This document shows positions 15,025 to 33,349 of a stretch of DNA of 33,591 bases, one piece after another (the first letter of the stretch is position 1; the number at the start of each line of letters is the position of its first letter). Source of the DNA: Candidatus Methanomethylicia archaeon. GTDB lineage: Archaea > Thermoproteota > Methanomethylicia > CALHIW01. A program made the translations under genes and the position numbers. The DNA lies in the NCBI GenBank assembly GCA_038845975.1, contig JAWBQF010000030.1, positions 1 to 33,591 on the forward strand, given 5' to 3'. The notes beneath the pieces were generated by a model. It had not been told where the DNA came from, did no database searches, and saw only the letters and a program-made list of their open reading frames with translations.

Positions 15025-15053
15025 CTCATAAAACAATCTATATCAGCCCGGAA

Positions 15054-15140
15054 AGCCCGGTGGAGACTATCGCCGATTGTAGTGGCCAAGCATAGCAGGC
15101 TCTGGCCCTGCTGACGGGAGTTCGAATCTCCCCCGGGCTA
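15054..15140 (+). tRNA. tRNA-Gln(CUG) with a 14-nt intron at 10/11 (15064-15077)
   Basis: AGCCCGG/CCGGGCT acceptor, GCAGG-CT CTG GC-CCTGC anticodon arm, GGGAG-TTCGAAT-CTCCC T arm. Removing AGACTATCGCCGAT restores the D stem GTGT/GCAT; BHB central helix CGGT/GCCG. Confidence 0.9.
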
Positions 15141-15309
15141 CTATCTCATGATTTCTTTTAATGGTTTACTTGCCATAATAATTATTATGAAACTTTACTT
15201 TAGATAGTTAAAATTATGGTTTTTTAATTTCTCTAGAGAATCAAGACATCGTTTGTATTTATTTTAGTGACACTAATAATTAATAAATACTTACAACAAG
15301 TCTGTCAAA

Positions 15310-16281
15310 TTAAAAAATCCAGTTTTTATATTCAATATACTCATCTACATTTATGGCTTTTCTTAGAAATGCTGATTGTAAAGCTACTTCTGCAAGTATA
15401 TGTGTCATTAAAGCATCTTTCCCTGAGGGAGTAGGATCAAAATTGTTGATTATAGAATTTATGAATTGTTTTAGTTCATTACTTAAAGGCTCTTCCCATT
15501 CATGCTCAAATATATATCTATCATTACTGTCTTGAATTATTATTTCCTGTGTTATATAGTCAAGATCAATGATTCCATTAGTTCCAGTTAATGTAAGTTT
15601 TCTAATCTTTTTTGGTGTTAACCAATTAGTCTCTATAAATGCGCTTTCACCACTATTGTATAGCATTAAAATGTTTGCGTGGTCTTCAAGTCTATGAATT
15701 AATTTTCCTGCAGCTGCAAAAATAATACTGGGTTCTTTTTCATATAAGTATCTCGCTACATCAATTTCATGTATTCCATAATCCTTTATTACATCAACAT
15801 CTACAATTCTTATAGGATAAGCTGAGACTCTTTTTGCAGATGATAATATTAGCTTTCCAATTTTACCTTGTCTAATAAGCTTTTTTGATATTTGGACAGC
15901 AGGATTAAATCTTTCAATGAATCCAACCATTATTTTCACACCAGCTTCGTTAGCCTTATCAACTACCATTATAGCTTCCTCAATAGTAGACGTCATTGGT
16001 TTTTCAATAAACACATGGACTCCCAACTCAATTACTTTAACAGCTATGTTTGAATGGGTTGATGTTGGAGTGCAAATAGTTACTGCGTCAAGTTTTTCTC
16101 TTTTTATCATTTCTTCAAAATCAGTATACCATTTAACTTGATATTTTTTAGCAACTAATCTTGCAGTTTCAGTGTTTAAGTCACATATAGATAAAGCTTC
16201 AATATTATCTAGTTGTTTAAGCACTCTTACATGATTTTGTCCCCAATATCCTACACCTATAACGCCTACTCTAAGACTCAT
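15310..16281 (-). CDS. Gfo/Idh/MocA-family oxidoreductase (possible nucleotide-sugar dehydrogenase)
   Basis: GVGYWG..H, EKP, VGFIERFNPA and D.GIH.ID motifs; downstream of aglH-like. Confidence 0.85.
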   Translation of the reverse strand: MSLRVGVIGVGYWGQNHVRVLKQLDNIEALSICDLNTETARLVAKKYQVKWYTDFEEMIKREKLDAVTICTPTSTHSNIAVKVIELGVHVFIEKPMTSTIEEAIMVVDKANEAGVKIMVGFIERFNPAVQISKKLIRQGKIGKLILSSAKRVSAYPIRIVDVDVIKDYGIHEIDVARYLYEKEPSIIFAAAGKLIHRLEDHANILMLYNSGESAFIETNWLTPKKIRKLTLTGTNGIIDLDYITQEIIIQDSNDRYIFEHEWEEPLSNELKQFINSIINNFDPTPSGKDALMTHILAEVALQSAFLRKAINVDEYIEYKNWIF

Positions 16282-16315
16282 CCCCTATCTATAACCTCTA
16301 TTTCATGATCTAAAT

Positions 16316-16555
16316 TTATTGTTTTAAGCATTTCTTCATAAAGTATGTTTTTACACTAAGATTCCATATATATAACCATAACGTAAATAGGAAAACTGCT
16401 ATAAGTACCTTCAACAGTCCAGTTAAAAATGCACTAGGTAATTCACCATGAATTTCAAGAGGAACTATCATGCTAGATACTATATAAAACAATAGAATTA
16501 ACATCATCCAATTAAGAAATATTATGATTAGTACAATTTTTACTCTATTTAACAC
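16316..16555 (-). CDS. small membrane protein (2 predicted TM helices)
   Basis: Two hydrophobic stretches. Probable GTG start at 16555 overlaps the aglH-like stop. Confidence 0.6.
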   Translation of the reverse strand: MLNRVKIVLIIIFLNWMMLILLFYIVSSMIVPLEIHGELPSAFLTGLLKVLIAVFLFTLWLYIWNLSVKTYFMKKCLKQ

Positions 16556-17562
16556 ATACCCACCATGTACATTAAGTACATTGTAAGTAAAGCCAGTAAA
16601 GCTGAGAAAAGAGCAATTACTATATAACACTTTATTAATGTCTTTTCATCGGCAGGACCATTAATTAGGAATAAGCTAGCAAGAACTATAGGCGCCTCTG
16701 GATTCTTATTAATTTCAAGTTTATATTCTTCATTTATAATTGTCGGACGTATTATTTCAGCTCTCTCTCTTAATCCATGAATACTCATAAGGGTATGAAA
16801 CCCATTAAGTATGAATGGCATAAAGGCAATAAATGCTACAACTTCTGCTTTACAAATTATTGAAAGCACACCTATAAGAGCACCTACACTTAACGATCCA
16901 ATATCTCCAGGAAAAACTTTTGCAGGATATTTATTGTAGGGTAAGTATGCAATAAGCGACGCCATTACAACCAGGCATATTATTAACTCATTGAAATGCC
17001 CATTAATAATAGCTGTTAAGGCTATGCAAGTAAGCACTATTAGACTTGTTAAAGGCATAACACCATTAAATACATCCATCATATTGACGGCATTCGATGT
17101 TACAGCTATAGCTAGAGGAATAAGAAAAGGGTATACGTAATGAAGCCGAGCAAAACCGGCAAAGGGTAGTTTAATGTATGGGTAATAAGCTTTAAGAAAA
17201 AGTAAGGGAATCCCTCCAAAAAATGTTAGGACTGTTTTTTTGAATGCACTTAATGTTTTTAAGTCATCAATAAATCCTACTATAGCTATAATAATTAGAG
17301 TTAGTATAACTGATAAGACCTTTACTTTAAAGTTATTTTCCTGTATAAATGGAAAAAGAAACACTAATCCAACAATTATGCTAACAACTATACATATCCC
17401 ACCCATTTCGGCAACATCAGGTTGGTTTGGTTTATGTATGTCCTTACCAGTTATACCATGTAAAATCGCAAATTTAATATAGTATCTTAAGGAAATGTAT
17501 GTAGAAATAAATGAAAGTAATATTGCTAGTATACTAGCAATATATAAAATCATCATACTCAC
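16549..17562 (-). CDS. aglH: UDP-GlcNAc:dolichyl-phosphate GlcNAc-1-P transferase (AglH; MraY/GPT family)
   Basis: GKDIHKP..P.VAEMGG, GFIDD, NAVNMMDVFNG and YPAKVFPGD.G motifs. Confidence 0.85.
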   Translation of the reverse strand: MSMMILYIASILAILLSFISTYISLRYYIKFAILHGITGKDIHKPNQPDVAEMGGICIVVSIIVGLVFLFPFIQENNFKVKVLSVILTLIIIAIVGFIDDLKTLSAFKKTVLTFFGGIPLLFLKAYYPYIKLPFAGFARLHYVYPFLIPLAIAVTSNAVNMMDVFNGVMPLTSLIVLTCIALTAIINGHFNELIICLVVMASLIAYLPYNKYPAKVFPGDIGSLSVGALIGVLSIICKAEVVAFIAFMPFILNGFHTLMSIHGLRERAEIIRPTIINEEYKLEINKNPEAPIVLASLFLINGPADEKTLIKCYIVIALFSALLALLTMYLMYMVGMC

Positions 17563-17627
17563 CCAAACATTAGTTTACCTTGATGTTCGGTAAGATTTAA
17601 ATCTTTCTTCATTTTAACTTAAAATTT

Positions 17628-18410
17628 ATGCAAAACTATTTAGATAAAGTAAGCAAATTAAAATCCTTTTTCAGCAAAATTAAGGATGCTATTATACTGC
17701 TTGGTGGTGATATTGGAAGTGCTGTCCTAGCAAAAATAGCTAAAGACTCATTAGGTGATAATGTAATTGCTATAACTATAAATTCACCTATAGTTTCCCC
17801 GCTAAGAATATACAATGCGAGTAAACTAGCTACCCAAATTAAAATCTCACATATTCTAGTTAACTTAAATGAACTTCAAATTGAAAACTTTGCAAGAAAT
17901 TCCAAAAGTAATAGATGTCTTTTATGTGTAACATATAGATATGGAATGATTAAAAAGATAGCTCTAGAAGCAGGATTTAGTAAAATCATTGATGGGTCAT
18001 ATATTCAAGGAAGCATCTTTGAACAAAAACGGAATATTTGCATAAAGGAAGATATTTCTCAGCCATTTATAGAATTAGGATTTAATCATGATGAAGTGTT
18101 AAAACTTCATAAATTTATTGGATTAAAAGGTCCACAACATATACCTAAATGTATTGCGAACAAAATTCCATATAATACCGAAATCACTCTAGATAAGATA
18201 AAATATATTAGACTTATTGAAGCATATTTACATAAGCGCTACAAGGTATATGCTGATGTACACTATAATGGTGAAAGTATAATACTAGATGTAAAAGCTA
18301 CAACTAGTTGTGATATTAGCAAGAGTGAAATTATTAATTCAATCACTAAAACTTTTAGAAATGCCAATATTAAGAAGATAGAATGGACTTTACCGTCTTA
18401 TACTCTCTAA
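17628..18410 (+). CDS. LarE/TIGR00268-like adenine-nucleotide alpha hydrolase with a degenerate PP-loop
   Basis: Overall LarE layout (LG.NVIAIT..SP, N...RC..C, I.DG, P..ELG, C.A..IPY...IT), but SGGVDS reads LGGDIGS. Confidence 0.7.
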   Translation: MQNYLDKVSKLKSFFSKIKDAIILLGGDIGSAVLAKIAKDSLGDNVIAITINSPIVSPLRIYNASKLATQIKISHILVNLNELQIENFARNSKSNRCLLCVTYRYGMIKKIALEAGFSKIIDGSYIQGSIFEQKRNICIKEDISQPFIELGFNHDEVLKLHKFIGLKGPQHIPKCIANKIPYNTEITLDKIKYIRLIEAYLHKRYKVYADVHYNGESIILDVKATTSCDISKSEIINSITKTFRNANIKKIEWTLPSYTL

Positions 18411-18949
18411 ATAGTTATGGATGAATTGAATTGTAATTGTAGTTGTAGATTGAGTTTACGAGTATATTGATGATAAGAATATATTAATGTGTTAAAATTA
18501 TTAATTACTATATTGAAGCTATTAATACTATGCTATAACTTTACCTCTCAAAGAACTTAACAATCATAGATTAAACCTTCAATAAACAGATAGAATCACA
18601 TAATCATCATCAATAGAGAATTAGATATTCTCAGCTAATAATATAGAAAACTTAAACACTAAACCATCTATCAGGCAACACCTAAAGAAACAAGTCACAA
18701 CAACCATAAAAACTCCCTTGTTAACTTAATTATCGACTACACCTCTTATATAATATCTATTCTAAATTCATCCATCATACACCTAAATACAATCAAGCAA
18801 TATTCAGCTAAATATAAACATCCAATTAATAGAACTACCTCTACAAACCCTGAAGCTAGCAAAATTTCACACAATATCCTAAATTACTGCACCTGACATT
18901 ATTTAGAGTAAAATTTAAAAACCACAATACAAAATACGAAAAGATTCCT

Positions 18950-21052
18950 ATGTTCAGTATTTGGTTAGTAATAGTACTAGGTGCAGGTTTATCTGCAGTA
19001 ATATACGCACTAGCCTTAGCTATTTATGTTTTAAAGCAGGATAAAGGATCAGGTAGGATGATCGAAATATATAGCTATATTAAGGAGGGAGCTAAGACCT
19101 ATCTAGCTAAACAGTACATGATTATAATAATAGTTGTTACTATAATTGCCTTTTTAATGTATTTAGCGCTTAGAACTATAAACTCTGAGTATGCTATACG
19201 TAATGTTACCTCATATGTGATTGGTGCATTATCATCTTCTCTTTGTGGATTTGTTGGTATGTATGTTGCTGTAAATGCAAATGTTAGAACAGCAAATAGT
19301 GCTAAAAATAGCGGACTAAATAAAGCTTTAAAAGTAGCATTTAGTGGTGGTACCGTTTTGGGCATGTCTGTTGTAGGTGTCGGTCTATTATCTATATTGT
19401 TATTTCTATGGCTCTATAGTGGATTTTCCACTAATTTAGAGGTTATTAAAAACGCTATTAGAGATATTGTTTCCTTTGCATTTGGTGCTAGTACTGTTGC
19501 ATTATTTGCAAGAGTAGGCGGTGGAATATATACCAAGGCTGCTGATATAGGTGCAGACCTCGTTGGTAAAGTTGAAAAAGGAATCCCTGAAGATGATCCG
19601 AGAAATCCGGGTGTTATTGCTGATAATGTTGGTGATAATGTTGGTGATGTTGCGGGCATGGGTGCGGATCTTTATGAGTCCTATGTTGAAGCTATAATTT
19701 CAACAATGGTTATTGGAGTTATTATAACCTTAACTGTAAAATCTATAAATTGGATTATACTTCCAATGGCTATAGCTGGTATAGGAATAGTTTCATCAAT
19801 AATTTCCACTATTACTATAGGTTTAATTAAAGATCCATCATATGCAATTACAAGTACTACTTTCATATCTACAACTCTAACAGCGATTTTTTCATATTTC
19901 ATTTGTATTCAAATGCTTGGAAGCGAGGGTATAGGCATATTTATGGCTGTACTAGCAGGTTTAGTTGTAGGCATGATTGTAGGTATAACTTCCGATTACT
20001 TTACAAATAGAGATAGAAAGCCAGTTAAAATGGTTGCAGAAGCTTCCCAAGCAGGTCCAGCATTAACAATACTAACAGGCTTCTCTATTGGATTTCTCAG
20101 TACAGTAATACCGATGGTTAGCATAGCTATAGCTAGCATAATTTCCTATACTTTTGCTACTAATTATGTTACTAGTGTAGCTAATAAATTAGCTATTGGC
20201 CTATATGGTGTAGCTATATCAGCTGTTGGTATGCTTGCTCCAGCAGGAGTTGTTGTAGCTGCGGATGCTTATGGGCCAGTTACAGATAATGCTGCAGGTA
20301 TCGCTGAACAAGCTGGATTAGAAGAAGATGTACGTGCTATATGCGATAGACTTGATTCCATAGGTAATACTATGAAGTCAATATGTAAAGGATTTGCGAT
20401 AGGCTCAGCTGCCTTAACAGCTTTAGCATTAATATCTGCATATATCCAATCATTACCAGAACAAGTAACTAGTAGAATGTTAAGTGAACTGAATTTGATG
20501 AACCCGTACACGTTAGCAGGAATAATAATTGGTGCTAGTCTACCTGCAATACTTACATCTATTGTGATAATGGGTGTAAGTAGAACAGCATATAGACTTG
20601 TTGAAGAAATTAGAAGACAATTTAGAGAAATACCAGGTCTAATGGAAGGTAAAGCTAAACCAGACTATGGTAAATGTGTAGGTATAGCCACAGTAAGTGC
20701 TCTTAAAAACCTCATAGTTCCGGGTATAATTGCTTTGTCTTTACCAATAATTATCGGGCTATTCCTTGGACCCGTAGCTTTAGGTGGAATGCTTATTGGA
20801 GCTGTTGTAGTTGGTCTGCTACTGGGTCTATTTCAAGGTAATGTAGGCAATACTTGGGATAATGCTAAAAAGTATGTTGAGCTTGGTAATTTAGGTGGTA
20901 AGGGAAGCGATACTCATAAAGCAGCTGTTATTGGTGATACTGTTGGAGATCCAATGAAAGATTCAGCAGGCCCAGCTCAGAATATATTCATAAAACTCAT
21001 GTCGGTCGCTTCGTTAACATTTGCTACAATAATCGCCTTATTTTATTTCTAG
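18950..21052 (+). CDS. hppA: membrane-bound ion-translocating pyrophosphatase, K+-independent type
   Basis: GGIYTKAADIGADLVGKVE, EDDPRNP.VIADNVGDNVGD and GDTVGDP.KD; Lys in GNTMKS. Confidence 0.95.
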   Translation: MFSIWLVIVLGAGLSAVIYALALAIYVLKQDKGSGRMIEIYSYIKEGAKTYLAKQYMIIIIVVTIIAFLMYLALRTINSEYAIRNVTSYVIGALSSSLCGFVGMYVAVNANVRTANSAKNSGLNKALKVAFSGGTVLGMSVVGVGLLSILLFLWLYSGFSTNLEVIKNAIRDIVSFAFGASTVALFARVGGGIYTKAADIGADLVGKVEKGIPEDDPRNPGVIADNVGDNVGDVAGMGADLYESYVEAIISTMVIGVIITLTVKSINWIILPMAIAGIGIVSSIISTITIGLIKDPSYAITSTTFISTTLTAIFSYFICIQMLGSEGIGIFMAVLAGLVVGMIVGITSDYFTNRDRKPVKMVAEASQAGPALTILTGFSIGFLSTVIPMVSIAIASIISYTFATNYVTSVANKLAIGLYGVAISAVGMLAPAGVVVAADAYGPVTDNAAGIAEQAGLEEDVRAICDRLDSIGNTMKSICKGFAIGSAALTALALISAYIQSLPEQVTSRMLSELNLMNPYTLAGIIIGASLPAILTSIVIMGVSRTAYRLVEEIRRQFREIPGLMEGKAKPDYGKCVGIATVSALKNLIVPGIIALSLPIIIGLFLGPVALGGMLIGAVVVGLLLGLFQGNVGNTWDNAKKYVELGNLGGKGSDTHKAAVIGDTVGDPMKDSAGPAQNIFIKLMSVASLTFATIIALFYF

Positions 21053-21780
21053 CAATATTATTTCTGATAAATAGAATGGAATACCGATCAACAACTATGC
21101 GTATTAAGAATAGAAATATAGAGTCTCAGCAAAGTTATTTAAAAACTTTTACATTAGATTTGCACTATTATTTGTGAAAATATTTGGTTAATTGTCTGTA
21201 TTTTTATTTTGTGTATAAGAGAGTGCATGGTCTTTACTTATTTTATTGCAATCCTATCTATAGAGACTGCTTTTATTTTATATTTTAACAGTCTTACTAT
21301 GATGTCGAGGAGAATATAAGTTAAAAAGACTATATGTTATAGTATTTTTAAAGGCTTCACATTGATTACAGTAATTCATGAGGTTTCTATGGTACTATAC
21401 TCCTTTAAGTTTACGGTTTGCTACTATGCTGAATTTATAGTTTCTTAGAATTTCTATTAACATCCTAAAAAATACTATGGGATTTGGATGTTAACTTAAG
21501 TAATAGATTTCAGAAAGCTATAGAAAAAATAAAATTCATGAGCTACTATAGACGAGGTGTAAAACTTGATGGTATTTTCATTTTAGATATCAAGTCTATC
21601 TGGAAGCTCTTTAAGTGTTGTTAAGACTTGATTAGGTTAATAAGTTAACTACCAATAATTATGGAATTTTCAGATAGGCTCAAACATAACTATTAACTCC
21701 CATAGTCTTACTAACTATAGCTATAGCAGTCGTAAATATAGACAGACCTTAACTCATGAGATGTATAATACTACTAAGCA

Positions 21781-22830
21781 CTATAAAACGGGAATTTTGC
21801 TGTAGCTTACTATGTTTTTGATATTTCTCTTAAATGGCGGTCTTATAATTCCTTTCTCAGTTATGATCATGCTAACAAGTCTTGGAGGAGTAATGTCAAA
21901 AGCTGGATTCCATACATTGACGTCTGGAGGAGCTATTTGATATCCCATTATTGATGTAACTTCATTACTTTCCCGCTCCTCTATTATGATATCTTCAATG
22001 TTTGAGCTTATATCTATTGTTGTTGTAGGAGCTACCACATAAAATGGTATTCCATGTTCATGTGCTAAAACTGCAAGAGTATATGTACCGATCTTATTTA
22101 TTACATGTCCGGCACGAAGTATCCTATCAGCACCAACAATTACTTTGTTTATCATTCTTTTTTGCATAGCAAATCCTACCATATTGTCTGTAATAAGTGT
22201 AAATGGTATTCCTTCAGTCTTAAGTTCAAAAGCTGTTATACGTGAACCCTGAAGTAAAGGCCTAGTTTCTGTTATTATAACCTTAAATCGTTTTCCTTGC
22301 CGCCATGCCTCCATTATAGCTCCAAGTGCCGTACCATAATCAACAGTAGCAAGAGGTCCTGTATTACAATGTGTTAAGACTGCATCATTATCCTCAATTA
22401 GCTGAGAAGCTATCTCAGAAACTTTTTTACTATACTCACATTCTTCTATCATTATATTTAATGCCTCATTAATAATTTCAGATTTAAGTTTATTCACATT
22501 ATTACTTAAGTACCTATTAACTATGTTTTCAAGTCTATTCAAGGCATAAAAAAGATTCTTTGCTGTGGGTCTTACTTTTTTAACCTTATCTATCCAATCA
22601 GTTATTTCTTTAGCTAAATTTTTAATGTTTTCTGCCTTACTATGGTAAGCTATTAAAGCAATAGTGAGAGCTCCGGCAACACCTATTGAAGGCGCTCCTC
22701 TAATTCTTAGTTTTCTTATAGCATCAACTATTTCTTCAGGATTTTCTGTTTCTATATACTCAAGCTTTAATGGTAGTTTACTTTGATCTACAAATCTGAC
22801 TTTACCTTGATTCCAAGTAATAGCTTTCAT
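21781..22830 (-). CDS. mtnA: methylthioribose-1-phosphate isomerase (eIF2B-like family)
   Basis: IRGAPSIG, RPTA.NL, LTHCNTG.LAT..YGTALG, ETRP.LQG.R.TA, GADRI, NKIGTY and NPAFDITP. Confidence 0.92.
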   Translation of the reverse strand: MKAITWNQGKVRFVDQSKLPLKLEYIETENPEEIVDAIRKLRIRGAPSIGVAGALTIALIAYHSKAENIKNLAKEITDWIDKVKKVRPTAKNLFYALNRLENIVNRYLSNNVNKLKSEIINEALNIMIEECEYSKKVSEIASQLIEDNDAVLTHCNTGPLATVDYGTALGAIMEAWRQGKRFKVIITETRPLLQGSRITAFELKTEGIPFTLITDNMVGFAMQKRMINKVIVGADRILRAGHVINKIGTYTLAVLAHEHGIPFYVVAPTTTIDISSNIEDIIIEERESNEVTSIMGYQIAPPDVNVWNPAFDITPPRLVSMIITEKGIIRPPFKRNIKNIVSYSKIPVL

Positions 22831-22919
22831 GAAACATATATTGTTTAAAAGAATTTAAATTTTCTACAAGTTTCCTAAATATTAGTTATATTTACTTTAA
22901 CCCAATTTCTTTCCTCTAT

Positions 22920-23476
22920 TGTCCCGTCAACTTTGGATGTTTATTTGATGTATTTTATTCTGTATTGTATGATTTGTGATGAATTCTCTGGGAGGTTAAA
23001 ACATTATTTATATTTTATACTTCAGTTATTAACTTATTTCTCTAGATATGATTTAGAGAATATGAATAGATTATTGGCTATTATCTGTATATGAACTTAT
23101 AGACTTAGCGATTTATCATCAATTATTCATATTGATTAGGAGGCTTACGTTAATAAATACACTATTAAGATCAATCATAATATGAATGTATTCAAAAGGA
23201 AGAGAGAAGTTATACTCATTAATCATTCCCACATATCAATCATAATACATACATAAAAGCTTTAAAAGAGATATAATGTTAAAATCATTATTACTGATAA
23301 AATCTACATACAGAATAGATTAAGCTATTAAGATAATAAACACTTTAAACCCCATAGAAGAATAATCAATACATGCAGATAAAAACACACAAACAATTAA
23401 ACACCACATAGAAAATAAAAATCGAAAATTCTAAGAGCAATAATAAAATAATATAACATCTAAAGTCGACAGGACA
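22920..23476. mobile_element. non-coding element with imperfect terminal inverted repeats (TGT...ACA ends)
   Basis: ATTGTCCCGTCAACTTTGGATGTT (22918-22941) matches the reverse complement of 23455-23478 at 21/24. No ORF inside. Confidence 0.55.
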
Positions 23477-23546
23477 ATCTTTCGGTAAGATGCAATTTAC
23501 CTAATAGTTTAAAACGAAGCTGTACTCCATGAATTTATTATGAAAT

Positions 23547-23635
23547 TACTTTGAGACTTAATTCTGAAATTCGTAATTGTAATCATAGTATTTAATGAAT
23601 GAAAATACAGGAAATAAGTACTAAACCACAAAGCT
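23547..23635. mobile_element. second, internally shorter copy of the IS5-related MITE
   Basis: Shares CTTAATTCTGAAATTC and TAGTATTTAATG with 2051-2177; ends in CCACAAAGCT like the IS5 TIR. Confidence 0.6.
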
Positions 23636-23957
23636 TTAATATTGAATTAATACATGTCCTCATTCTAAGGAGGCTTACCCATAAAAATAATGCTGGAAAT
23701 AATCAGTAATCAAAGATTGTTAGAAGAATGATAAAGGGTAAAAACTTCATTGTAAGCAAAATGTAAAATTTTCACAAATCACTATATACAATACGGAAAA
23801 TTTATGCAAATACTAATGCTAACATGATGAAGAATTTTATGAAGCTTGTATTGTCACTCATTAGAGTTATGTAAACCTAAGATGTAGTTACACTTAGATT
23901 TATAGGACCATATTAAACTAGAAAAATTTATTAAAAGAACTTTTATCTTAATTCATA

Positions 23958-24500
23958 ATGGTGTTATTATTGTCTTCAAATCCTTATATATGTAAGTTAA
24001 CAATTGATGGCGGATTGATAGAAGATGTAGATGCTATAAATAACCTCTATCATAATGATTTCTATGGTGAATTATCCGAAGGCATTTTAAAGCTTTTATC
24101 TGTTGAGGTACTATATCTAGAGCAGAAAGGCGTACTTATTGTTATTAATAATAAGAACCTAACTCTCTCTTTTGAGGATCTTATTAACTTCTATAGAAGA
24201 TATGATGAGGTTATTTGGGAGCGTTATTCACTATATCTTGACTTAAAACAGAGGGGGTATATTGTTAAAGGAGGTTTCAGTAATCGACTAGAATTTAGAG
24301 TATACAAAAGGGGGGCGTTTCCTCTCCATGATCCTGCAAATTTTATAGTAGTAGGAGTATTAGAAGGAAGACCCCTCTCACTTGAAGAACTCGATAAAAT
24401 AACAAGACAAACTAGAATTTCAAACAAGGAGTTAATCTTAGCTGTTATCGATAGAGAAGGGGGAATTACTTACTATGAAGTTGGCCTCATTACACTTTAA
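23958..24500 (+). CDS. endA: tRNA splicing endonuclease subunit, probably the structural (beta) subunit
   Basis: E.LYL, Y.DLK.RGY.VK, FRVY.RG, K.LILAVID and DREG.ITYYEV. The KYG.DF motif and the catalytic His are not conserved in position. Confidence 0.85.
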   Translation: MVLLLSSNPYICKLTIDGGLIEDVDAINNLYHNDFYGELSEGILKLLSVEVLYLEQKGVLIVINNKNLTLSFEDLINFYRRYDEVIWERYSLYLDLKQRGYIVKGGFSNRLEFRVYKRGAFPLHDPANFIVVGVLEGRPLSLEELDKITRQTRISNKELILAVIDREGGITYYEVGLITL

Positions 24501-25301
24501 CTCTAAGTATTAGGGTCTTCCACATCTTTAATAAATGATTTAGTTCTTTAACCGATTACTTCTCTATTTGCTCCACATATTTACTGTAAAAAGTAATTTC
24601 TTGAAAACTGTCATTTTTATACTTCTTCTAATAATCTTAGTGCCGAATGTTTCTCATTATGTACTGAAACATTACTAGATTTCCAGCTGTAAATAAGTTT
24701 TCATTTATTAAAGAAGTAAGAGTAGTAATAAGGTATTCTCAGTAATTTTTGGTTTAATTATTATATTAATTATAATCTTACTACTTTGTTGGTTTTACTT
24801 GAAGCTAGTGGTTTAGGATGAGAGTTAGATCATAAACATTTTAGGTTAATTTGTTGTACCAAGCATATCATGTTCGATATTCAAAACATTGATTTAATAC
24901 AATATCTATGTCTAATATTACATACTACAATATTTCCTTATTGAATAATCAAAAACTATGTAGAAGATGAAGTGGTTAAAATAGAATTTTCCATATAAGA
25001 AGATTAATAAATAATACATTATAAAATTGATAAAATTTCGGTTAATATTAGGTGTGTCTAACTTATGGTAGTTAACCGCTAAACTTAAGGTATTTTGCTG
25101 GGGTATGTGTTCATGCTAGGGAAGTTAGCCTGTACTGCTACTAGAATCATATATAAAATTGTTAAAAGTCATTCCAAAGAATAGTTTAAAATAAAAGCCA
25201 CCAGGAAGCTAGTTTACATCTGGCAGTTAACTGCTTGGCCTATTTGAGTACGTCCATTAAGTAGTTAAATCTTATATATTTGAATAATAAGATAGTATCC
25301 T

Positions 25302-25387
25302 GGGCCCGTAGCGCAGTATGGAAGCGCGTCGGCCTCCTATTAATTGAAGAAAGCCGTTGGTCGTGGGTTCAAATCCCACCGGGCCCG
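25302..25387 (+). tRNA. tRNA-Arg(CCU) with a 12-nt intron at 37/38 (25340-25351)
   Basis: GGGCCCG/CGGGCCC acceptor, GCGC D stem, loop CT CCT A|TTAATTGAAGAA|A, GTGGG-TTCAAAT-CCCAC T arm. Confidence 0.9.
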
Positions 25388-25404
25388 TTTTAAGGGAGTT
25401 ATTG

Positions 25405-25728
25405 TTAAGGCTGTATATTTTTTATCAAATCTCTAATTGAATTAAAGTATGCCGTTTTATTCTTTAGCTTTAGTTTTACTTTTTCTATAGGAAAACTCGT
25501 TATAATATTTGATGGTGAGATGGATCCAAAAGCTTTCACCCACTCAATATAATTTTCATTTTTATCTTCGGCATGAATATACCTATTTATTACTAAAACA
25601 TAACGTGAATTTTTAAAAAATATGTAAACCTTGAGTTTTTTGCAATATATTAGTCTATGTAAGTATTTAATATCTATCTGCATATCCGTATATGTTTCCT
25701 TACAATTTATATTTAGCCCACTTATCAT
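25405..25728 (-). CDS. hypothetical protein
   Basis: 107-aa ORF convergent with tRNA-Arg; no recognised motif. Confidence 0.45.
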   Translation of the reverse strand: MISGLNINCKETYTDMQIDIKYLHRLIYCKKLKVYIFFKNSRYVLVINRYIHAEDKNENYIEWVKAFGSISPSNIITSFPIEKVKLKLKNKTAYFNSIRDLIKNIQP

Positions 25729-26127
25729 CTTAACTGTCAGAGAAGGCTTTATGTAGTGAGTGAATTCAGACTTAATTAACTGAGATAGGAGTTGTGTGGT
25801 TGGTATTGTTAGTTTACTTTAAGGTTTAATTGTAGTTGGCTCTTCTAGTAGTTTTTCAGTCAACTTCAATATGTGATTAATCATCTAGATATGATTCAGC
25901 AGTTAAGCCTGAATTACCACTTCCGAAATCATCAAATCAGCTTAATAATTTAATGTTTCATTAATTTTGAGATTAAATCTTATCATTAACTCATAAGCCT
26001 AATATTGCCTTCAAACTATTGATGCTTATGTGGTCTAACTTAGCTTTCAAATCACCTATCTTAGATTGCTGTTAGTGTTGGAAGCAAAACTTTTATCTAT
26101 CTAATAAAACTTTATTAGTCATAATCT

Positions 26128-26258
26128 GCGGGGGTTCCCGAGCCAGGATAAAGGGGCAGAATTGTTATGCCCAGGACTTAAGATCAATGTTATAAAGAGG
26201 TTGGATATACGAAATCCTGTGGCATAGGCCTTCGTGGGTTCAAATCCCACCCCCCGCA
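26128..26258 (+). tRNA. tRNA-Leu(UAA) with two introns: 29/30 (26160-26174) and 37/38 (26183-26213)
   Basis: GCGGGGG/CCCCCGC-A acceptor and a long variable arm. Intron 1 BHB helix GGGC/GCCC; spliced arm CAGGA-CT TAA GA-TCCTG. Confidence 0.88.
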
Positions 26259-27620
26259 TCAAATTGAAAAATTATAGAAGCCTCAAACCATGTATGACGA
26301 GACGTTTTCAAAATATTTGAACCCTATACCTCATGTGTACTATTATGTATGTAAAATACTACCATTTTCAGTCCCTCAAAATTAAGAATTACTAACTGAT
26401 CAAACACTAATTTAGTGAGAAATAGATTTAATTTAGATCAATTATAGCATGGCTATTATTATATTTATTATTCTCATAACTCAGCAATTTTATAGTATTT
26501 GGATATGCATGTTTTCAACATCTTACTATAAGGACAGAGCTTTTTATTATCCTCCCAAAATCTTTCTAAATTCATAGAGCTGTTTATTTAGGAATTTTAT
26601 AGTATTTCCAATTTCTTATTGTATGTTAGATTATTTGCTATTAATATAATCTAGTATTCTTTACCTTCCCTATTTATGATAAATTTATGGCTAAAGCTAT
26701 TAGGTTTATTAGGAATAGAGTTCTCATTTACTCTAGTTATTTATATATTTCGTTTGTTGTAAATACATTAAGAAGATTAAAGCTATCTATGGTTCTAATA
26801 TAATTGTATTAAGTGTATGCTCATTATTATATGAGGTAAAATACTGAATTTAGTGAAGTATATAGTTTAGAGATTAGAATTAGTAAAGAAAATACCAACA
26901 ATAGAAATAACTATTCGATAATTACATATTACCAAACTATAGTAAGATTTTTTTAAGAGGATTAGCAAATATGAGAAGCCATTCATATAGTGCTTTAAGG
27001 CTACTTAAGCTAGAGGGAAAAAACACTCTCATTAATACTAAGTTTATAGAGGCAAAATTTAGATAGGCTGTAAGGCTAAATACTCTACAGAGAAGATACA
27101 TAAACTTCCTACACATTGATTCAGCCAATAAGCATGATCCGACAATCATAGGAGGGAGAGCATAATTCAATTGATAAAAACTAGATTTTACACTAAATTT
27201 GAAGGGGAAGTAGTAATTTTAGAGTTAAACTTCTAGGCTTTCCTAAAAGTAGATGTAGTAAAGGATACAGGCATAAAGATAAGCCTATATTCATTGAAAG
27301 AGGAAATTAGAAAACGTATCAATCGACAAATGCAAATGGGAAAATATTAGGGAAGATGATTGAGAGAAGAGTTGAGCAGAAATCAAACATTATATAGATG
27401 AATTATTGTCATGTAGTATAAGCTAAGAGGATAAAATCAGTTATTAATAGTAAATAGCTCAAAGACAAGTGTACAAGAGATGATCTGCATATTGATAATC
27501 ATGAGAATAGATTTAGCATGAAGACTCTATTAATACATAGAGGAGTATTGAAAGATGACTTAAAGACGTGCTTAACTCATTCAAACTTAGAGGTCTATGA
27601 GCTCTAGGTATGAGAATATA

Positions 27621-28328
27621 GATACTGCTACTTTCAGGTTTATGTTATTGCTGGTGGTTTTCCTAGGTTTTGATGAGGTCTTATCCAGTTATACCAGAGT
27701 ATGAAGAAGTTTAGGAATAGGTTGATCTTTATGAGTTTCTTGTCTGAAGTTGTGTAGAATCTTTTGCTCGATCCTTAAGTGTTCGAAACCATCTCTCTAT
27801 CGTATTCCTAGCGAAGGTTTGACATCTCAATCTTAAACCATGGTTATACAATGCCTGGGGATACCAAGGCCCCTACTAGGATTAGAGGCTTATTAACACA
27901 TGCCTTAAGGACTTGCTTCAGGAAGAGATCTGCATCCAGTATGCTTCTCCGCCATGAAGCCCTTACTGCTAGAAGCTCTTGGTCTTAACGTCTATTGCAG
28001 CCCACACGTAGAAATGATGCCCAGCCTCCTCAGCTTCACCTCATCAATAGCTACCATCCCCTATTGGCTTCACATCAATCCTTACGCTTCAATCTTTTGA
28101 ACCCAACACCATACAGATACATGGCCCACATGACAACTCGGCAGACGTAAGCAATATCCCTATAGCTAAGCCCAGCCATGTAGAGAATACATGCTCTCAA
28201 CTTCTTTTTAAGCGAAACCTTATCTGAAAACTCCTTTATCTCTTAGGGCTTTGAGAAGCTTACCTATTAATATCACCTCCAAAGAATAACTTCTCAAAGC
28301 CCCTCAAAAATCTAAAAGTAACAGTATC
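27621..28328 (-). mobile_element. IS6-family element with a disrupted transposase
   Basis: TIRs GATACTGCTACTTT / AAAGTAACAGTATC (13/14) and direct repeat GAGAATATA (27612-27620 / 28329-28337). Fragments AIDEVK, YVWAAIDVKT, GPWY and IERWFRTLK. Confidence 0.88.
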
Positions 28329-28655
28329 GAGAATATAAATGGTCCATATCTTAAATTTGCAAGACGAAAACTTCATTAGGTAAATATATAATCCATTTAA
28401 AATAACTTAGTATTTTTAAGTTATTAATACCACGTATTTCGAGCTAAAATTTTTAAGCTAATAGCTATTTAAAGTAATAACAAAGATATTTCTATTAAAT
28501 TTAACATGAAAAAAAGGTTTTTTATAGAGTTTGAATTGCATTTTTCTATTTTCTGTATATTTTTTACTTAATCTTTATCATTAAATAATTAATATTCTGC
28601 GAAAAATTTAAAAGTTGGCTTTCATGATTTATAATAGTTCTAAGGTGATGATGTT

Positions 28656-29042
28656 ATGAGGGTGTTGGGGAAACACATTATTGCTGAATTGTATGGATGC
28701 CGCTCCAACATCCTCGATGATCCTGTCCAGTTAGAAAAAGCCTTAGTTGAGGCGGCTAACAGAGCTAAGGCTAAAATATGTGGGAAACTTTTCTACAAAT
28801 TTAATCCACAAGGAGTAACTGGATTTGTACTCATATCGGAGTCGCACATATCAATACATACATGGCCCGAATATAATTATTGTGCTATAGATATCTTTAC
28901 ATGTGGAGAATCAACAAAGCCTTGGCTTGCATATGATTACCTAATTTCATTGCTAGACCCGAGTAATATTTCAGTTATGGAAATTGGCCGTGGTCTCAAG
29001 TCTCAGCTAAGACCTATTAAAGTTAAAAAATTAAAAACTTAA
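28656..29042 (+). CDS. speD: S-adenosylmethionine decarboxylase proenzyme (pyruvoyl-dependent; an arginine decarboxylase paralog is not excluded)
   Basis: G.HIIAELYGC, F.PQGVTG, ESHISIHTWPE and DIFTCG. Confidence 0.85.
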   Translation: MRVLGKHIIAELYGCRSNILDDPVQLEKALVEAANRAKAKICGKLFYKFNPQGVTGFVLISESHISIHTWPEYNYCAIDIFTCGESTKPWLAYDYLISLLDPSNISVMEIGRGLKSQLRPIKVKKLKT

Positions 29043-29788
29043 CTTTCTGTTTGCAGTTCTTCTTCACTGAAATATAATAAATACTTAACTTTACCATTAA
29101 GATCCTTAATATTTCTCCATCTATCTCCAATAGCTATCAAAGTAAATATTCCAACGATTTCTGCTCTTGCCTTTTTAATAATTTTAAGTAATGCGTACTG
29201 CTGTGCTCCATCTCTAATTATATCATCAACTATAAGTATATCATCTCCTCTTTTCAGAAGTTCCTTAGGAATATATAACTCAAATTCTATTGCCGCCTCA
29301 TTAATCTTTACTACTTCTTCTATGAATTTTTTAATACCTACTTCTCTATTTTTCTTTGCATATACTACCGGTACGGAAAGTTCGCGCGCTACCTGAACAG
29401 CTAGAGGTATTCCATCTGCTGCTATAGTAGCTACTTTACTTATTCTCTTGCCTGAGTATGTTTCAACTACAAACCTTGAAATATGTCTTAGTAGTATTAT
29501 ATCGGATAGAATTTTAGAATTATCAATATATCCATCACGTGTTGTTAATTTATTCCTTAAAAGCTTATCTAATGGAAACATTTCAAGTAGTTTACTCATT
29601 AACTTTTCTGTCCTCATAGGATTTGGCATTATATCTCCTGAAGCATAACGGTTTAAAGTACTTGCCGAAATTTTAGTCTGTTTTGCTATAAAACTGTAAC
29701 TATATTCATTCTTAATTAAACGTAATAAATCTATAACATAAAGCTGCTTACACATCAAATCATATTTTTTTTGTTTCATTAAGATCAT
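29039..29788 (-). CDS. HTH-fused phosphoribosyltransferase (PurR/Apt-like regulator)
   Basis: N-terminal HTH (YS.IA..T.I..STL.RY..G...P), ADGIPLA and the PRPP-binding ILIVDDIIR.G motif. Confidence 0.8.
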   Translation of the reverse strand: MILMKQKKYDLMCKQLYVIDLLRLIKNEYSYSFIAKQTKISASTLNRYASGDIMPNPMRTEKLMSKLLEMFPLDKLLRNKLTTRDGYIDNSKILSDIILLRHISRFVVETYSGKRISKVATIAADGIPLAVQVARELSVPVVYAKKNREVGIKKFIEEVVKINEAAIEFELYIPKELLKRGDDILIVDDIIRDGAQQYALLKIIKKARAEIVGIFTLIAIGDRWRNIKDLNGKVKYLLYFSEEELQTES

Positions 29789-30239
29789 CTCAAATCAAAT
29801 TAAAGTAGTAATATCTCTTAGGTAACTTAAATATATGTTGCTTAAATAAATTGTCCTTAGCAATTCGTGAAATTTATACGCTTTTTATCCATGGTTTCCT
29901 GAAAATCCTATTGTTTAAGTTGACTATAAAATCCTATCTCTAAGGGTTTCAGATAGGTTAATAGAGATTGTGAACTTAGCATGTTTATATTTCTGACCAT
30001 ATTTCATCAAATCCCAATTTAAGGCTTGAATTAACTGTCAATATATAGAATACTAAGTCTCTTTGACTGTCAATTATCTCCACGAGCTAAATAATTAACC
30101 ACAATGCTTTTACATATAAGTCCACAAAGTCGCTCTAATAGACGTAGCAACTTAGCGCACTATAGTTTTCTTCTTAAGCTGCCAGGTCCGCTCTAATTAA
30201 CGATAAATTTTTAAACTCCACGTATTTAAATAATATAGT

Positions 30240-30410
30240 CCCCGGGTAGCTCAGTCATGATGGAGTAATGGTAGGGAATCCCAGTAAAGAGCGATCGGCT
30301 GTAGATAATTATACATGGACCTTGCCTACTCAGGCGGGATGAAAATGTATCAGCTGAAACCGATTGGTCGGGGGTTCGAAATCTGTAGTACGAAAATCCC
30401 TCCCCGGGGA
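30240..30410 (+). tRNA. tRNA-Tyr(GUA) with four introns: 15/16 (30255-30268), D loop ~20a/20b (30274-30286), 37/38 (30305-30358), 59/60 (30381-30396)
   Basis: C1-G72 acceptor CCCCGGG/CCCGGGG-A, GCTC/GAGC D stem, ATCGG-CT GTA G|A-CCGAT anticodon arm, GGGGG/CCCTC T stem. BHB helices GCTC/GAGT, GTGG/CCAG (3/4), CTGT/GCTG (3/4) and TTCG/CGAA. Confidence 0.85.
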
Positions 30411-30641
30411 CTACTTTAGCTAAATTAAGTTTTTTATAATAAGGGGCTTATTATTTTATCTTAACATAACTAACATAAGATCATGTTTAGCTCTTTAAAA
30501 GGTTAATTTTTATTTCCTTTTAATATCTTTTTAGTTTTCCATAAATGAGAGTTGCTATAAAGAAAACAATTTTATTTTCTTCTAAAAATCTTTGATTACT
30601 GAACATTTGTAATGATTATTTACACATCATTACTTATAAAA

Positions 30642-30745
30642 TGGCGCCCCGGCCGAGATCTATTCATAACTTTTGAACTCGGGCCTGGCGGGTGACAGCC
30701 GCCAATACTGAACCGGGCTATACTCGGCATTAACTCTACCGGGGC
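30642..30745 (-). tRNA. tRNA-Asp(GUC) with encoded CCA and introns at 10/11 (30723-30735) and 58/59 (30660-30672)
   Basis: GCCCCGG/CCGGGGC-G-CCA and GGCGG-CT GTC AC-CCGCC; BHB helices CGGT/GCCG and GTTC/GAAT. Confidence 0.9.
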
Positions 30746-30777
30746 TTGCCGGGGCAAGATAATGTTTTCCTTATGAA

Positions 30778-30785
30778 TTTTTAAA
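30778..30785 (-). promoter_or_regulatory. putative TATA box of tRNA-Asp
   Basis: AAAAG-TTTAAAAA on the minus strand, starting 30 nt upstream of 30755. Confidence 0.6.
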
Positions 30786-31171
30786 CTTTTCTACCTAAAC
30801 TCTTATCCTGCCAACTCTTGAAGTTTCTACTTGAAAGTATTCTAACTCTGTACTGGTTATGATTTGTGATGGATCATTTAAGAGAGTAGGAACACAATCA
30901 TATTTGTACTTCAAGTCCTACTAACTACTTCTTAAATGTAGTTTGAGAAAAACAAGTAAGCTTTTTAACTATAGTTGTGAGGATATACGTAAGTGAAATC
31001 ATAGATTTAGTGAGATTACATCGATTACTCATATTTGTCAGGAAATATAGTTGATAACTATACCACTAGATATAATCCATTCGCTGTATGGATATAGGTT
31101 ACATTTAAGAGTGTAGGAAAAATTGGTTTGCATTCATTTATCATTTTCACATAATGATCTCCATGCATACA

Positions 31172-31849
31172 GATACTGTCAAGTTGTTGGCATTGCTGGC
31201 AGCCTCTTTAGGGTTTGATGGGGCCTTATGAAGTTGTACCATAGGACGAAGAGCCTTATGAAGAGTTTATCTTGAATATAGACTTTACTGGAAGTTGTTA
31301 AAGAAGTGTCTAGTCCTAGCTTTCATTGTAGAACCATCGTTCAATACGGTTCCCCCGCGAAGGTTCTATGAATCCATTTAAGGCCTGAAGGGCTTCAGGA
31401 TACTGGGGCCACGAGGATGATGGCTATTCATACATGCTTCCAGAACCTTCCTCATGAAGGCTTCATGGAGGATATTCCTCCGCCATGAAACCCATAGCTA
31501 GAAGCTCACGCGTATCGACATCTATAGCAGCCCATACGTATCATCATTCCCATCAGCCTTAATCTTAGTCTCATCGACGGCTACCATACACCTAGGCTTA
31601 GCTCCAACGTTAACGGTCACGCGTTCCAGCTTCTAACCAAAGCCTTACGGCCTCGTAGCTGCACGGCACAAACCCCAGAACGTAGATTATTTCTCTGTAG
31701 CTCAGGCCAGCCATATAGCAGAACAGCCCTAACCCTCATCCGAAAACCTATCAATCCTAACAAACCACTATCCTCAAAGGCTTTAATAAGCCACCTAATA
31801 GACCTCCAAAAGCAGCTTCCCAAACCCCTAAAAATAACTTGACAGTATC
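31172..31849 (-). mobile_element. IS6-family element with a disrupted transposase
   Basis: Perfect 14-bp TIR GATACTGTCAAGTT (31172-31185 / 31836-31849) and direct repeat ATGCATACA (31163-31171 / 31850-31858). Fragments VAVDETKIK, YVWAAIDVDTRELLA and FVLWYNFIR.HQTL. Confidence 0.9.
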
Positions 31850-32028
31850 ATGCATACAAGTCCTAAAGATTTTATGGGAGAAGTAAGATGTTAAAATCGT
31901 CATTACTAATCATTTTATGATGTTATGTTTATGCTTATAAGACTAATAGATTAAAACGTTTATCAGGCTGATAAGTGTTAGTATTATAGTTTTTTAAAGG
32001 TTTGAGTATGTTGTTTTAGTTATTGAAC

Positions 32029-32812
32029 TCATATGAAAATTTTCAGCAGCATTAGTATGTATGCTACTTGTATTAATGCTAGTCTCTCTTATATCATGGT
32101 TATTCTTCTGAATGATACCAGCTACGTGAAGAATCTTTCAACAGCGCTTCTCATGCTCTTATACACTTTCTTATCGAGCCTGTATGGTCTTCCATGCTTA
32201 GGTTTACGTCTACTCTTCGGATCTCCTCTATATTTCGCTCTTACTCCTCTACACCTAAAGTATGCTTTAACCTCTTAGTATTGTATGCAGAATCATCCAC
32301 AACCCCTCTAGGTCTAGTTCTAGGCCTACCCTACCACATTCAACCATTACATTTTCTAGGAGTGGTATGAATTGGTTTGATTCGTTTCATTGAGTCTCCT
32401 ATTTGAATGTTTAACGGTAGGTCTCCACTTGATATAAGCACATGTATTTTCATACCTTTAATATGCTTATATCCATCATAGCCAACTAGCCCCTATCTTC
32501 CCTAGCCCTAATAGTTATGCTATCAACAGAAACTCTATCAAGGCTATCCATAGAGTATCTCCTATCTATTAAGGTTTTGAATAGATTAGTCCATACTCCC
32601 TTAAAACTCCAATGCTTAAACCTATCCAAGCATTCTTATAAGAACCATACTTATTGGACATATCCATTCAATGGCAACCAGTAACAAGCACATAAAGAAT
32701 ATCATTCAATACATGTCTATCATCAACCCTAGGCCTATCAGTCCTAACCCTAGGAGAAAGTAAAAGACCTAATAAGCTTCCACTCATAATCACTAATCTC
32801 ACAAAACTCCAT
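32029..32812 (-). pseudogene. IS5-family transposase pseudogene (DUF4096-type N-terminus)
   Basis: Fragments ISDYEWKLI, RPRVDDR.VLN.ILYVL.TGC, VSVDS.TI.A and RSAVERFF..L..FRRI, with many stops and frameshifts. Confidence 0.85.
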
Positions 32813-33217
32813 AATAAAAATAAAAACTTTACTCAGAAACATTTAAATAGTTTCCAGACTAATTCATTTTATATTGCATTTTGAGCTATAAGAGTTTAAG
32901 ACTTGTGAGAAAATTATTATTTATGTGAATAATGATCTATCATAATTAAGAGATATGGAAAACTTATATGAAATTTCAAAACACTAGTGGCAAAGACGAA
33001 CTATAAGAATATGAAGTACACATATAAGGTTCAAAATAGAGGATCATTTTAACTAAGAGTTATTAGATAAATGATAAAAATGGGGCTTTAAAGGCTCTAC
33101 CTTTATGGTAAACAATCAGCAACTGAAAGTTGTTATAAGAACGATAGAAGCTTTGCTTTTTATGGCAAGCAAATAAACATTCACTCACTGAAAGGGGTGG
33201 AAAGTGAAAAATTACTA

Positions 33218-33315
33218 CGGGCCCGGTGGGATTTGAACCCACGACCACTGGGTTTCTTCAGGTTAAAAGCCCAGCGCTCTACCTAACTGAGCATCCCGTT
33301 TAGTATTACGGGCCC
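33218..33315 (-). tRNA. tRNA-Lys(UUU) with introns at 9/10 (33293-33306) and 37/38 (33254-33263)
   Basis: GGGCCCG/CGGGCCC-G, GCTC/GAGC and CTGGG-CT TTT A|ACCTGAAGAA|A-CCCAG; BHB helices CCCG/CGGG and CTTT/GAAG. Confidence 0.9.
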
Positions 33316-33349
33316 CTCCCCCGAGCCCATCAATGTTATTATAAGCCTA

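Follow-up and report, generated by a model that had tools for sequence, protein, structure and literature searches.

Archaeal tRNA introns that lie at non-canonical positions and are bounded by bulge-helix-bulge (BHB) motifs were reportedly described by Marck and Grosjean in 2003, in the forms hBHBh', HBh', hBH and BHL. In split and permuted tRNA genes and in rRNA processing stems, which are said to have been characterized by Randau in 2005, Soma in 2007 and Chan in 2011, a leader and a trailer pair to build the splicing motif. Natural tRNA leader-trailer pairing exists, and attenuators and riboswitches operate through mutually exclusive helices. Here we analyze a stretch of 33,591 nucleotides (nt) from a Candidatus Methanomethylicia archaeon, which is the whole of contig C30 (JAWBQF010000030.1, assembly GCA_038845975.1) and is called the window below. 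Three tRNA genes in the window, Gln(CTG), Asp(GTC) and Lys(TTT), combine an intron after nt 9 or 10 with a leader that contains a copy of the gene's own acceptor 5' strand. We propose, with a probability of about 0.7, that this copy serves as a surrogate for the acceptor 5' strand and so enables the true strand to build the splicing motif.

BHB introns at non-canonical positions are treated in the accessible portions of three sources (PMC4090602; PMC6379350; bioRxiv 10.64898/2026.10.13.758758). The introns described here resemble them in having a helix of 4 base pairs (bp), two 3-nt bulges and an encoded endonuclease of apparently two-subunit type, and most of the metagenomic Gln genes among the matches listed also have an intron hairpin. 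They differ in the leader: the published descriptions, in the portions accessible, cover exon and intron only and contain no leader element that pairs with the 3' acceptor strand. As far as the accessible descriptions of split and permuted genes and rRNA stems go, flanking non-tRNA sequence is needed there, as it would be here, to present the motif to the same endonuclease. In those systems, the same descriptions have the flanks pair with each other, carry the bulges and be removed by the endonuclease. In contrast, the copy in our genes is a continuous, bulge-free complement of nt 66-72 with no cut site, and the motif comes from exon and intron; the leader would work by releasing another strand, and RNase P would presumably remove it. 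In engineered riboswitch-tRNA constructs, a leader that sequesters the acceptor or the 5' cleavage site controls RNase P (PMC8925977, accessible portion). The likeness is that a 5' leader competes around the acceptor stem and gates 5' maturation; the engineered leaders described there are controlled by ligands and unrelated to splicing, whereas here intron removal would throw the switch. As in attenuators and riboswitches, two like strands would compete for one partner and an event elsewhere would decide the winner, but there is no ligand, ribosome or terminator, and the outcome is the order of tRNA processing. In the literature examined, which did not extend to the intron catalogues of 2003 and 2008 or to any supplements, we found no account of a leader copy with the 3' acceptor strand as its pairing partner. 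The proposal answers a structural puzzle that the accessible portions of the intron catalogues examined do not address, namely that the motif of an acceptor-adjacent intron needs bases that the acceptor stem also needs.

Results

Leader copies in three tRNA genes of the window

Six tRNA genes were read in the window: Gln, Asp, Lys, Arg, Leu and Tyr. The first three share one layout, in which a leader copy, a spacer of 2-6 nt and the true acceptor 5' strand are followed by an intron between nt 10 and 11 (10/11) or nt 9 and 10 (9/10). In tRNA-Gln(CTG), on the forward strand, a TATA-like hexamer (15018-15023) starts 27 nt before the leader copy AGCCCGG (15045-15051), which is identical to nt 1-7. 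The spacer AA (15052-15053), the 5' exon with nt 1-10 (15054-15063; true strand 15054-15060, TGG 15061-15063), a 14-nt intron at 10/11 (15064-15077) and the 3' exon with nt 11-73 (15078-15140) follow, and the 3' acceptor strand CCGGGCT occupies 15133-15139. By hand, nt 5-8 (CGGT) pair with GCCG in the intron. The mature sequence was deduced from 27 intron-less relatives.

tRNA-Asp(GTC) is on the reverse strand. Its TATA-like box (30778-30785) contains a hexamer that starts 29 nt before the leader copy GCCCCGG (30749-30755), which is followed by the spacer CAA (30746-30748), the 5' exon with nt 1-10 (30736-30745; true strand 30745-30739, then TAG) and a 13-nt intron at 10/11 (30723-30735) whose GCCG pairs by hand with nt 5-8. 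The 3' exons (30642-30722) contain the 3' acceptor strand (30652-30646), an encoded CCA and a second intron of 13 nt in the T-loop (about 30672-30660), placed at 58/59 by our own reading. The 17-base string formed by the copy, the spacer and the true strand has a single occurrence and appeared in 0 of 100 shuffles.

tRNA-Lys(TTT) is also on the reverse strand, with a TATA-like box (33348-33356) 28 nt before the leader copy GGGCTCG (33322-33328). The copy pairs 7/7 with CGGGCCC, one of the pairs being G-U. Compared with the true strand GGGCCCG, it has a single C>T difference, and this base still pairs with G68. The spacer GGGGAG (33316-33321) is replaced by GA in a genome of the same genus (G001). 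The 5' exon with nt 1-9 (33307-33315; true strand 33315-33309, TA) leads into a 14-nt intron at 9/10 (33293-33306), and the 3' exons (33218-33292; 3' acceptor strand 33225-33219) are interrupted by a 10-nt intron in the anticodon loop (about 33263-33254). By hand, nt 4-7 (CCCG) pair with CGGG in the intron, and nt 1-3 can pair with nt 11-13 as an outer helix.

The other three genes, all on the forward strand, serve as controls, and their nt 1-15 are contiguous. tRNA-Arg(CCT) (25302-25387) has the same acceptor as Lys and an anticodon-loop intron only; it has no copy, its best leader heptamer pairing 4/7. tRNA-Leu (26128-26258) has no acceptor-proximal intron and no copy (best 2/7). tRNA-Tyr (30240-30410) has introns in the D-loop, the anticodon loop and the T-loop and no copy (best 5/7). 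An earlier note on this DNA had claimed the shared layout for Gln, Asp and Lys and the lack of both intron and copy in Arg, Leu and Tyr, and the sequence bears out both descriptions. It had also placed TATA boxes 28-30 nt before the copies; the boxes do lie upstream of the copies, at distances that we measured as 27 to 29 nt.

Association of the copy with intron position

The assembly (2.77 Mb, 33.7% GC, 93% complete) yielded 39 tRNA genes in a T-arm-anchored scan combined with Rfam. This set is incomplete, and anticodon names were assigned by eye. The leader score is the best upstream heptamer that pairs with the gene's own nt 66-72, with G-U pairs allowed; in this genome it was taken from up to 25 nt upstream. 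Eight genes are cut at or before nt 10: Gln(CTG), Gln(TTG) and Asp at 10/11, Lys(TTT) and elongator Met at 9/10, Pro(GGG) at 7/8, and Pro(TGG) and Trp at 3/4. A 7/7 leader heptamer is present in 7 of these 8 genes, which are cut at nt 3-10, and in 0 of the other 31, where the best score is 5/7. By our own arithmetic, the chance of such a split is 8/C(39,7), or ~5 × 10^-7. The relation between intron position and leader complementarity that the earlier note had drawn from six genes is thus seen across this genome. The Lys(CTT), Arg and Val genes of this genome, which have the Lys acceptor, contain neither a 9/10 intron nor a copy. Three of the seven copies (Lys, Met and Pro(TGG)) differ from the true strand, by one C>T change each, and a G-U pair is kept in every case.

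The tRNA-Trp gene (contig C21, reverse strand) has a partial copy, GGGCC, with 5 bp of pairing in a shifted register, and the 5' half of its central helix comes from the leader GGGGT. The leader and intron design recurs in Pro(TGG), where the copy is full. An alternative assignment of Pro(TGG), with a 7/8 intron that starts at the upstream copy, was rejected, as by hand it gives 1-2 of 4 pairs in the central helix versus 4/4 for the 3/4 assignment. In tRNA-Glu(CTC) (contig C50, 11690-11791, forward strand), a 27-nt insertion at ~13/14 has no convincing splicing motif. Within the insertion, GCTTTGG pairs 7/7 with the 3' acceptor strand of this gene and is taken for the acceptor strand by both Rfam and ARAGORN; it may be a chance match or an intron-borne surrogate strand.

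Conservation in other genomes and metagenomes

The search patterns for Gln, Glu/Asp and Lys genes specified exon on both sides of the insertion and never specified the leader. As kin are not independent, we give counts and no pooled test. Among the matches listed for metagenome contigs, the Gln 10/11 pattern gave at least 120 loci, of which 105 are distinct and 101 have a leader of at least 25 nt; the Gln counts below refer to these 101 listed genes or a stated subset of them. The leader heptamer pairs 7/7 in 51 genes, 6/7 in 46 and 5/7 in 4, so that 97/101 have at least six pairs. The spacers measure 0-11 nt, with a mode of 1.

In a phylum sample of 401 genomes, the Glu/Asp pattern gave 16 matches, which resolve into 12 true genes, one ambiguous gene and three that are not tRNAs. 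The 12 genes come from 8 families, and the heptamer pairs 7/7 in 10 and 6/7 in 2. The ambiguous gene (L301, genome G393) was left out because a repeated TATAG allows any intron position from 10/11 to 15/16; L292, L304 and L307 were left out as non-tRNAs. Lys 9/10 genes were collected from the phylum sample and a global contig scan, whose listed matches were mostly bacterial chance matches with 5 usable archaeal loci. Among the matches listed, the heptamer pairs 7/7 in 10 of 11 Lys genes and 6/7 in 1 of 11. In five Lys 9/10 genes (L153, L168, L171, L077 and L082), the leader, GGCGGG..., abuts or overlaps nt +1. By our own reading, this leader is complementary over 8-10 bp to nt 66-72, the discriminator and a GCC trailer, and the surrogate helix would therefore extend beyond the tRNA.

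The copies match the acceptor of the tRNA to which they belong, whether Gln, Glu, Asp, Lys, Met or Pro. In a genome of another family (G132), a gene with a 3/4 intron is preceded at 22 nt by an exact copy, and spacers of 13 to 22 nt are found in single Glu, Lys and 3/4-intron genes. Within one genus, the Lys spacer is 6 nt in one genome and 2 nt in another, and the copy stays. Intron-less Gln genes of class relatives have a 7/7 heptamer in 0/27 and a 6/7 heptamer in 1/27; among the class relatives examined, the Gln intron and the copy are both kept only in the genome of the same genus. Intron-less genes with a GGGCYSG acceptor, from five genomes that have Lys 9/10 introns, have a 7/7 heptamer in 0/21 and a 6/7 heptamer in 1/21. 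The earlier note would have given up its reading had copies been as common on tRNAs without acceptor-proximal introns; full copies on such tRNAs number 0/31 in this genome and none in either of these control sets.

Two matches of the 3/4 pattern that were not counted (L333 and L337, genome G214) have recognisable sequence from nt 4 (GCCG...), with a promoter-like CGAAAAGTATATGAG box directly before it, and may represent split genes or long 3/4 introns.

Promoter spacing

Among the 73 Gln genes where a TATA-like hexamer was found, the nearest one begins 26-30 nt ahead of the copy in 64, and the distance is 26-29 nt in 7 of 7 genes of this genome (Trp was not scored). In the ordinary tRNA genes of this genome, the same spacing runs from the TATA-like hexamer to mature +1, with a mode of 29. 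The spacing is therefore kept to the copy and not to mature +1, so that the copy should be at the very 5' end of the transcript; this places the predicted transcript start at the copy. A start at position 2 would suit those Gln variants in which position 1 is C or T and the next base is G.

The partner strand of the copy

Position 1 of the Gln copies varies freely across the 101 genes (A>C in 32, A>T in 17, A>G in 8). Positions 2-7 have 13 C>T changes, plus two G>A and one G>T that all fall on the terminal position 7; a further variant, ACCCGGG, is indel-like and scores as G>C plus C>G. The C>T changes at positions 3 and 4 lie outside the CCGG palindrome and outside the bases that pair with the intron. 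Nothing but C>T is seen at these two positions, as expected if a G-U pair is kept with G69 or G70 of the 3' strand. A Glu copy in genome G198 likewise differs from the true strand by C>T only, and the non-palindromic GCT (GCU) of Glu is kept in 12/12 copies. This substitution pattern fits nt 66-72, the 3' acceptor strand, as the probable partner of the copy. Simple gene conversion or a decaying relic would be hard to reconcile with the free position 1 and with spacers and flanks that drift.

Splicing motif and enzymes

In the accessible portion of its description, the splicing motif has a 4-bp central helix in which the four exon bases that precede the 5' bulge pair with the four intron bases that precede the 3' bulge (bioRxiv 10.64898/2026.10.13.758758). 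The exon bases in question are nt 5-8 for a cut at 10/11 and nt 4-7 for a cut at 9/10. They belong to the acceptor stem, and the cloverleaf and the motif are therefore mutually exclusive. In all 101 Gln genes, nt 5-8 pair 4/4 with positions -6 to -3 of the intron, which supports the premise of the earlier note that the acceptor stem must open for the BHB motif. Five different intron strands are used, all pairing with CGGU. Two 3-nt bulges would fit the geometry, GG|A or AG|A on the 5' side and AA|T or AG|T on the 3' side, and the predicted spliced Gln sequence equals the intron-less Gln genes of relatives. The inner intron helix h' reaches at least 2 bp in 96/101 Gln introns. In the window, Lys has an h helix of 3 bp; Gln and Asp have neither h nor h' of 2 bp and are loop-type, relaxed motifs.

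The genome contains two endonuclease paralogs of PF01974, scoring 99.6 and 60.5 bits. The catalytic-type paralog, on contig C1 (~60 kb), aligns to the catalytic C-terminal repeat. The second paralog, of 180 aa, is encoded in the window (23958-24500, forward strand), about 800 nt upstream of tRNA-Arg, and matches the N-terminal structural repeat and, weakly, beta-subunit models. Such a pair of structural-type and catalytic-type paralogs matches what would be expected of the two-subunit enzymes that handle relaxed motifs. The accessible portion of PMC6379350 says of two-subunit splicing endonucleases that they handle such motifs. The RNase P protein Rpp30 is also present in the genome.

Folding and energetics

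We calculated partition-function folds for 88 complete Gln precursors at 37 °C. In the unspliced precursor with its leader, the median probability is 0.99 for pairing of the copy with nt 66-72, 0.00 for pairing of the true strand with nt 66-72 and 0.83 for the central helix. When the leader is deleted, the true strand takes nt 66-72 (median 1.00) and the central helix is lost (median 0.00). These folds agree with the release of the true strand that the earlier note had proposed, and the trend is the same at 70 °C. Before splicing, the copy helix together with the exon-intron hairpin beats the true helix by a median of 8.9 kcal/mol. In this genome's own genes at 37 °C, the copy pairs with the 3' strand with a probability of 0.67-1.00 in 7 of 8. 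In the six genes cut between 7/8 and 10/11, the central helix has a probability of 0.05-0.67 with the copy and 0.00 without it.

Discussion

Gene anatomy, the association with intron position, the substitution pattern, promoter spacing and predicted energetics come directly from our analysis. From them we infer a transcription start, an actual pairing, a cleavage, a strand exchange, a removal by RNase P and an order for these steps. Transcription would start at the copy or within 1-2 bases of it. In the unspliced precursor, the copy would pair with nt 66-72 and the true strand, which lies 0-22 nt downstream of the copy (mostly 1-3), would be left free for the splicing motif, which the two-subunit endonuclease would cut. 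If the copy were absent, the motif bases would be tied up in the 7-bp GC-rich acceptor stem. Removal of the intron would also remove the hairpin that favours the precursor fold, and the true strand could then retake nt 66-72, aided by the completed D-arm and tertiary contacts. This exchange would need the D-arm, tertiary contacts or the pull of an irreversible cut by RNase P. The copy would thereby become a single-stranded 5' extension that RNase P would cut off. If RNase P removes the copy only once splicing has freed it, splicing precedes 5' maturation. The model predicts a fixed processing order and an intermediate that is spliced and still has a leader of 8-30 nt. The interpretation in the earlier note had the same outline. 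Its central part, pairing of the copy with nt 66-72 and the resulting release of the true strand, is supported indirectly, by the association, the substitutions, the promoter spacing and the folds; its steps of strand exchange and RNase P cleavage go beyond that support.

Several observations weigh against this reading. The tRNA-Trp gene, cut at 3/4, lacks a full copy and has a 6/7 heptamer, and 4/101 Gln genes keep only 5 bp of the copy. The claim in the earlier note that every tRNA with an acceptor-proximal intron has a copy thus holds for 7 of 8 genes here and not for Trp, with its partial copy, and is weakened by these four Gln genes. In a Methanothrix metagenome-assembled genome, a tRNA-Lys(TTT) gene (L055, ~5034-5077, reverse strand) has its first nine bases repeated 9 nt upstream and no 9/10 intron; this gene came from a pattern that favours such repeats. 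Among GC-rich strands, a heptamer score that tolerates G-U pairs has limited specificity. The 3' strand is invariant within each family, so that the changes are one-sided only, and copying of each gene's own 5' strand could in principle account for the match across families. In RNAfold calculations on the spliced RNA with its leader, the copy keeps nt 66-72 (median 0.94, compared with 0.01 for the true strand) and strand exchange is not predicted, the copy pairing in these folds coming partly from evident misfolds. The local helices are about isoenergetic after splicing, with a difference of +0.2, and the copy is never the stronger. This thermophile's own genes form the central helix only moderately, with probabilities between 0.05 and 0.67 at 37 °C and no higher than 0.45 at 75 °C, and the value is ~0 for the two genes cut at 3/4, Pro(TGG) and Trp. 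Searches with RF00373 and RF02357 found no match for RNase P RNA in the draft assembly, which is not evidence of absence; RF02357 gave no match in its control genomes either.

The nearest rival is a variant with the same pairing and a different limiting step. It says that the copy pairs with nt 66-72 but not to enable the motif: the hairpin would form first during transcription, and the copy would partner the orphaned 3' strand, for 3' trimming, CCA addition or protection from nucleases, or would hide the RNase P site until splicing. The hairpin made by nt 5-10 and the intron is indeed local and stable alone, with a median of -10.1 kcal/mol at 37 °C. The position of the copy at the predicted transcript start would let the surrogate helix mimic a finished 5' end. 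The variant also draws on the five Lys 9/10 genes in which, by our own reading, a GGC in the leader upstream of the copy and a GCC in the trailer carry the pairing into the discriminator and trailer. Every observed feature is common to this variant and to the surrogate-strand model, which differ in the limiting step only. In equilibrium folds without the leader, however, the hairpin loses to the true acceptor stem (central helix 0.00, versus 0.83 with the leader), making an enabling role the simpler reading, and we consider the variant unlikely.

Far less probable is a copy that has no role in the RNA and is a by-product, either a relic duplication from intron insertion or a start-site element at the DNA level that was kept after displacement of the promoter. 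As expected from a duplication, each copy repeats the first seven bases of its own gene in direct orientation, and the Methanothrix gene has a copy without an intron. However, a relic should decay, whereas the copy is kept over at least 5 bp in 101/101 divergent listed Gln genes while spacer and flanks drift. Its positions 2-6 change by C>T only (leaving aside the indel-like variant) and position 7 changes in 3 listed genes, while position 1 is free. The Gln genes of the 27 class relatives examined have neither intron nor copy, and a start-site element would not depend on intron position. Target-site duplication was rejected because the intron is not between the repeats. We also rejected an assignment in which the first copy is the true 5' exon followed by a tiny second intron, as an intron of 9-13 nt would be too short to hold the motif and copies with C or T as their first base would not match U72.

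The least credible alternative makes the copy a brake or timer on splicing, through pairing with the true 5' strand (the palindromic core is CCGG in the Gln, Asp and Glu strands and GGGCCC in Lys) or through competition for the intron's 3' end (by hand, the Lys copy could pair with the intron CGGG), but bases outside the palindrome are conserved or change by C>T only (Gln 2-3; Glu GCT 12/12), which only pairing with the 3' strand explains, the folds place the copy on nt 66-72, and the base after the Gln copy is A or C instead of T, which limits pairing of the copy with GCCG to 3 of 4.

The surrogate-strand reading may extend to a general archaeal rule, in which any intron with its 5' cut at about nt 3-10 would need a surrogate strand at the 5' end of the transcript, the copy, with its free position 1 and tolerated G-U pairs, would be held to a strength no greater than that of the true helix, and the intron would act as the switch that fixes splicing first and trimming second, across many lineages in soils, sediments and hot springs. 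The evidence tips slightly towards such a rule. If true, it would explain why acceptor-proximal introns can exist at all. It also bears on the gain and loss of tRNA introns, as the intron and the copy seem to come and go together. The copy is an easily scored sequence signature for finding such genes and annotating them correctly.

Detection of the tRNA genes and other features

ARAGORN mis-typed most of these tRNA genes, whether introns were allowed or not, and served as a pointer only. It called the Gln gene (15045-15141) a tRNA-His(GTG) and took the leader copy as the acceptor strand, an annotation trap. With RF00005, Gln, Lys and Arg of the window score above the gathering score, at 29.4 bits (model positions 9-63), 39.4 bits (10-63) and 57.5 bits (1-71), respectively. 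The Gln and Lys matches start at model positions 9 and 10, as expected for introns there. Asp and Tyr were missed by Rfam and recovered by the T-arm scan. A search with RF00005 over 151 phylum genomes covered the best full-length matches only and is of no use for truncated tRNA matches. A loose scan for acceptor pairs gave 667 candidates, mostly false, and was replaced by the stricter T-arm scan.

T-arm and GC-island scans of the assembly gave no tRNA genes beyond the 39, and no GC-rich island of rRNA size was found in it. The recovered set lacks the tRNAs for His, Ile, Asn and Phe, among several others. DNA matching the window is present in hot-spring metagenome runs, and no RNA run that matches it was listed. 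The contig abounds in tRNA genes that have multiple introns, with three insertions in Tyr, two in Asp and two in Lys.

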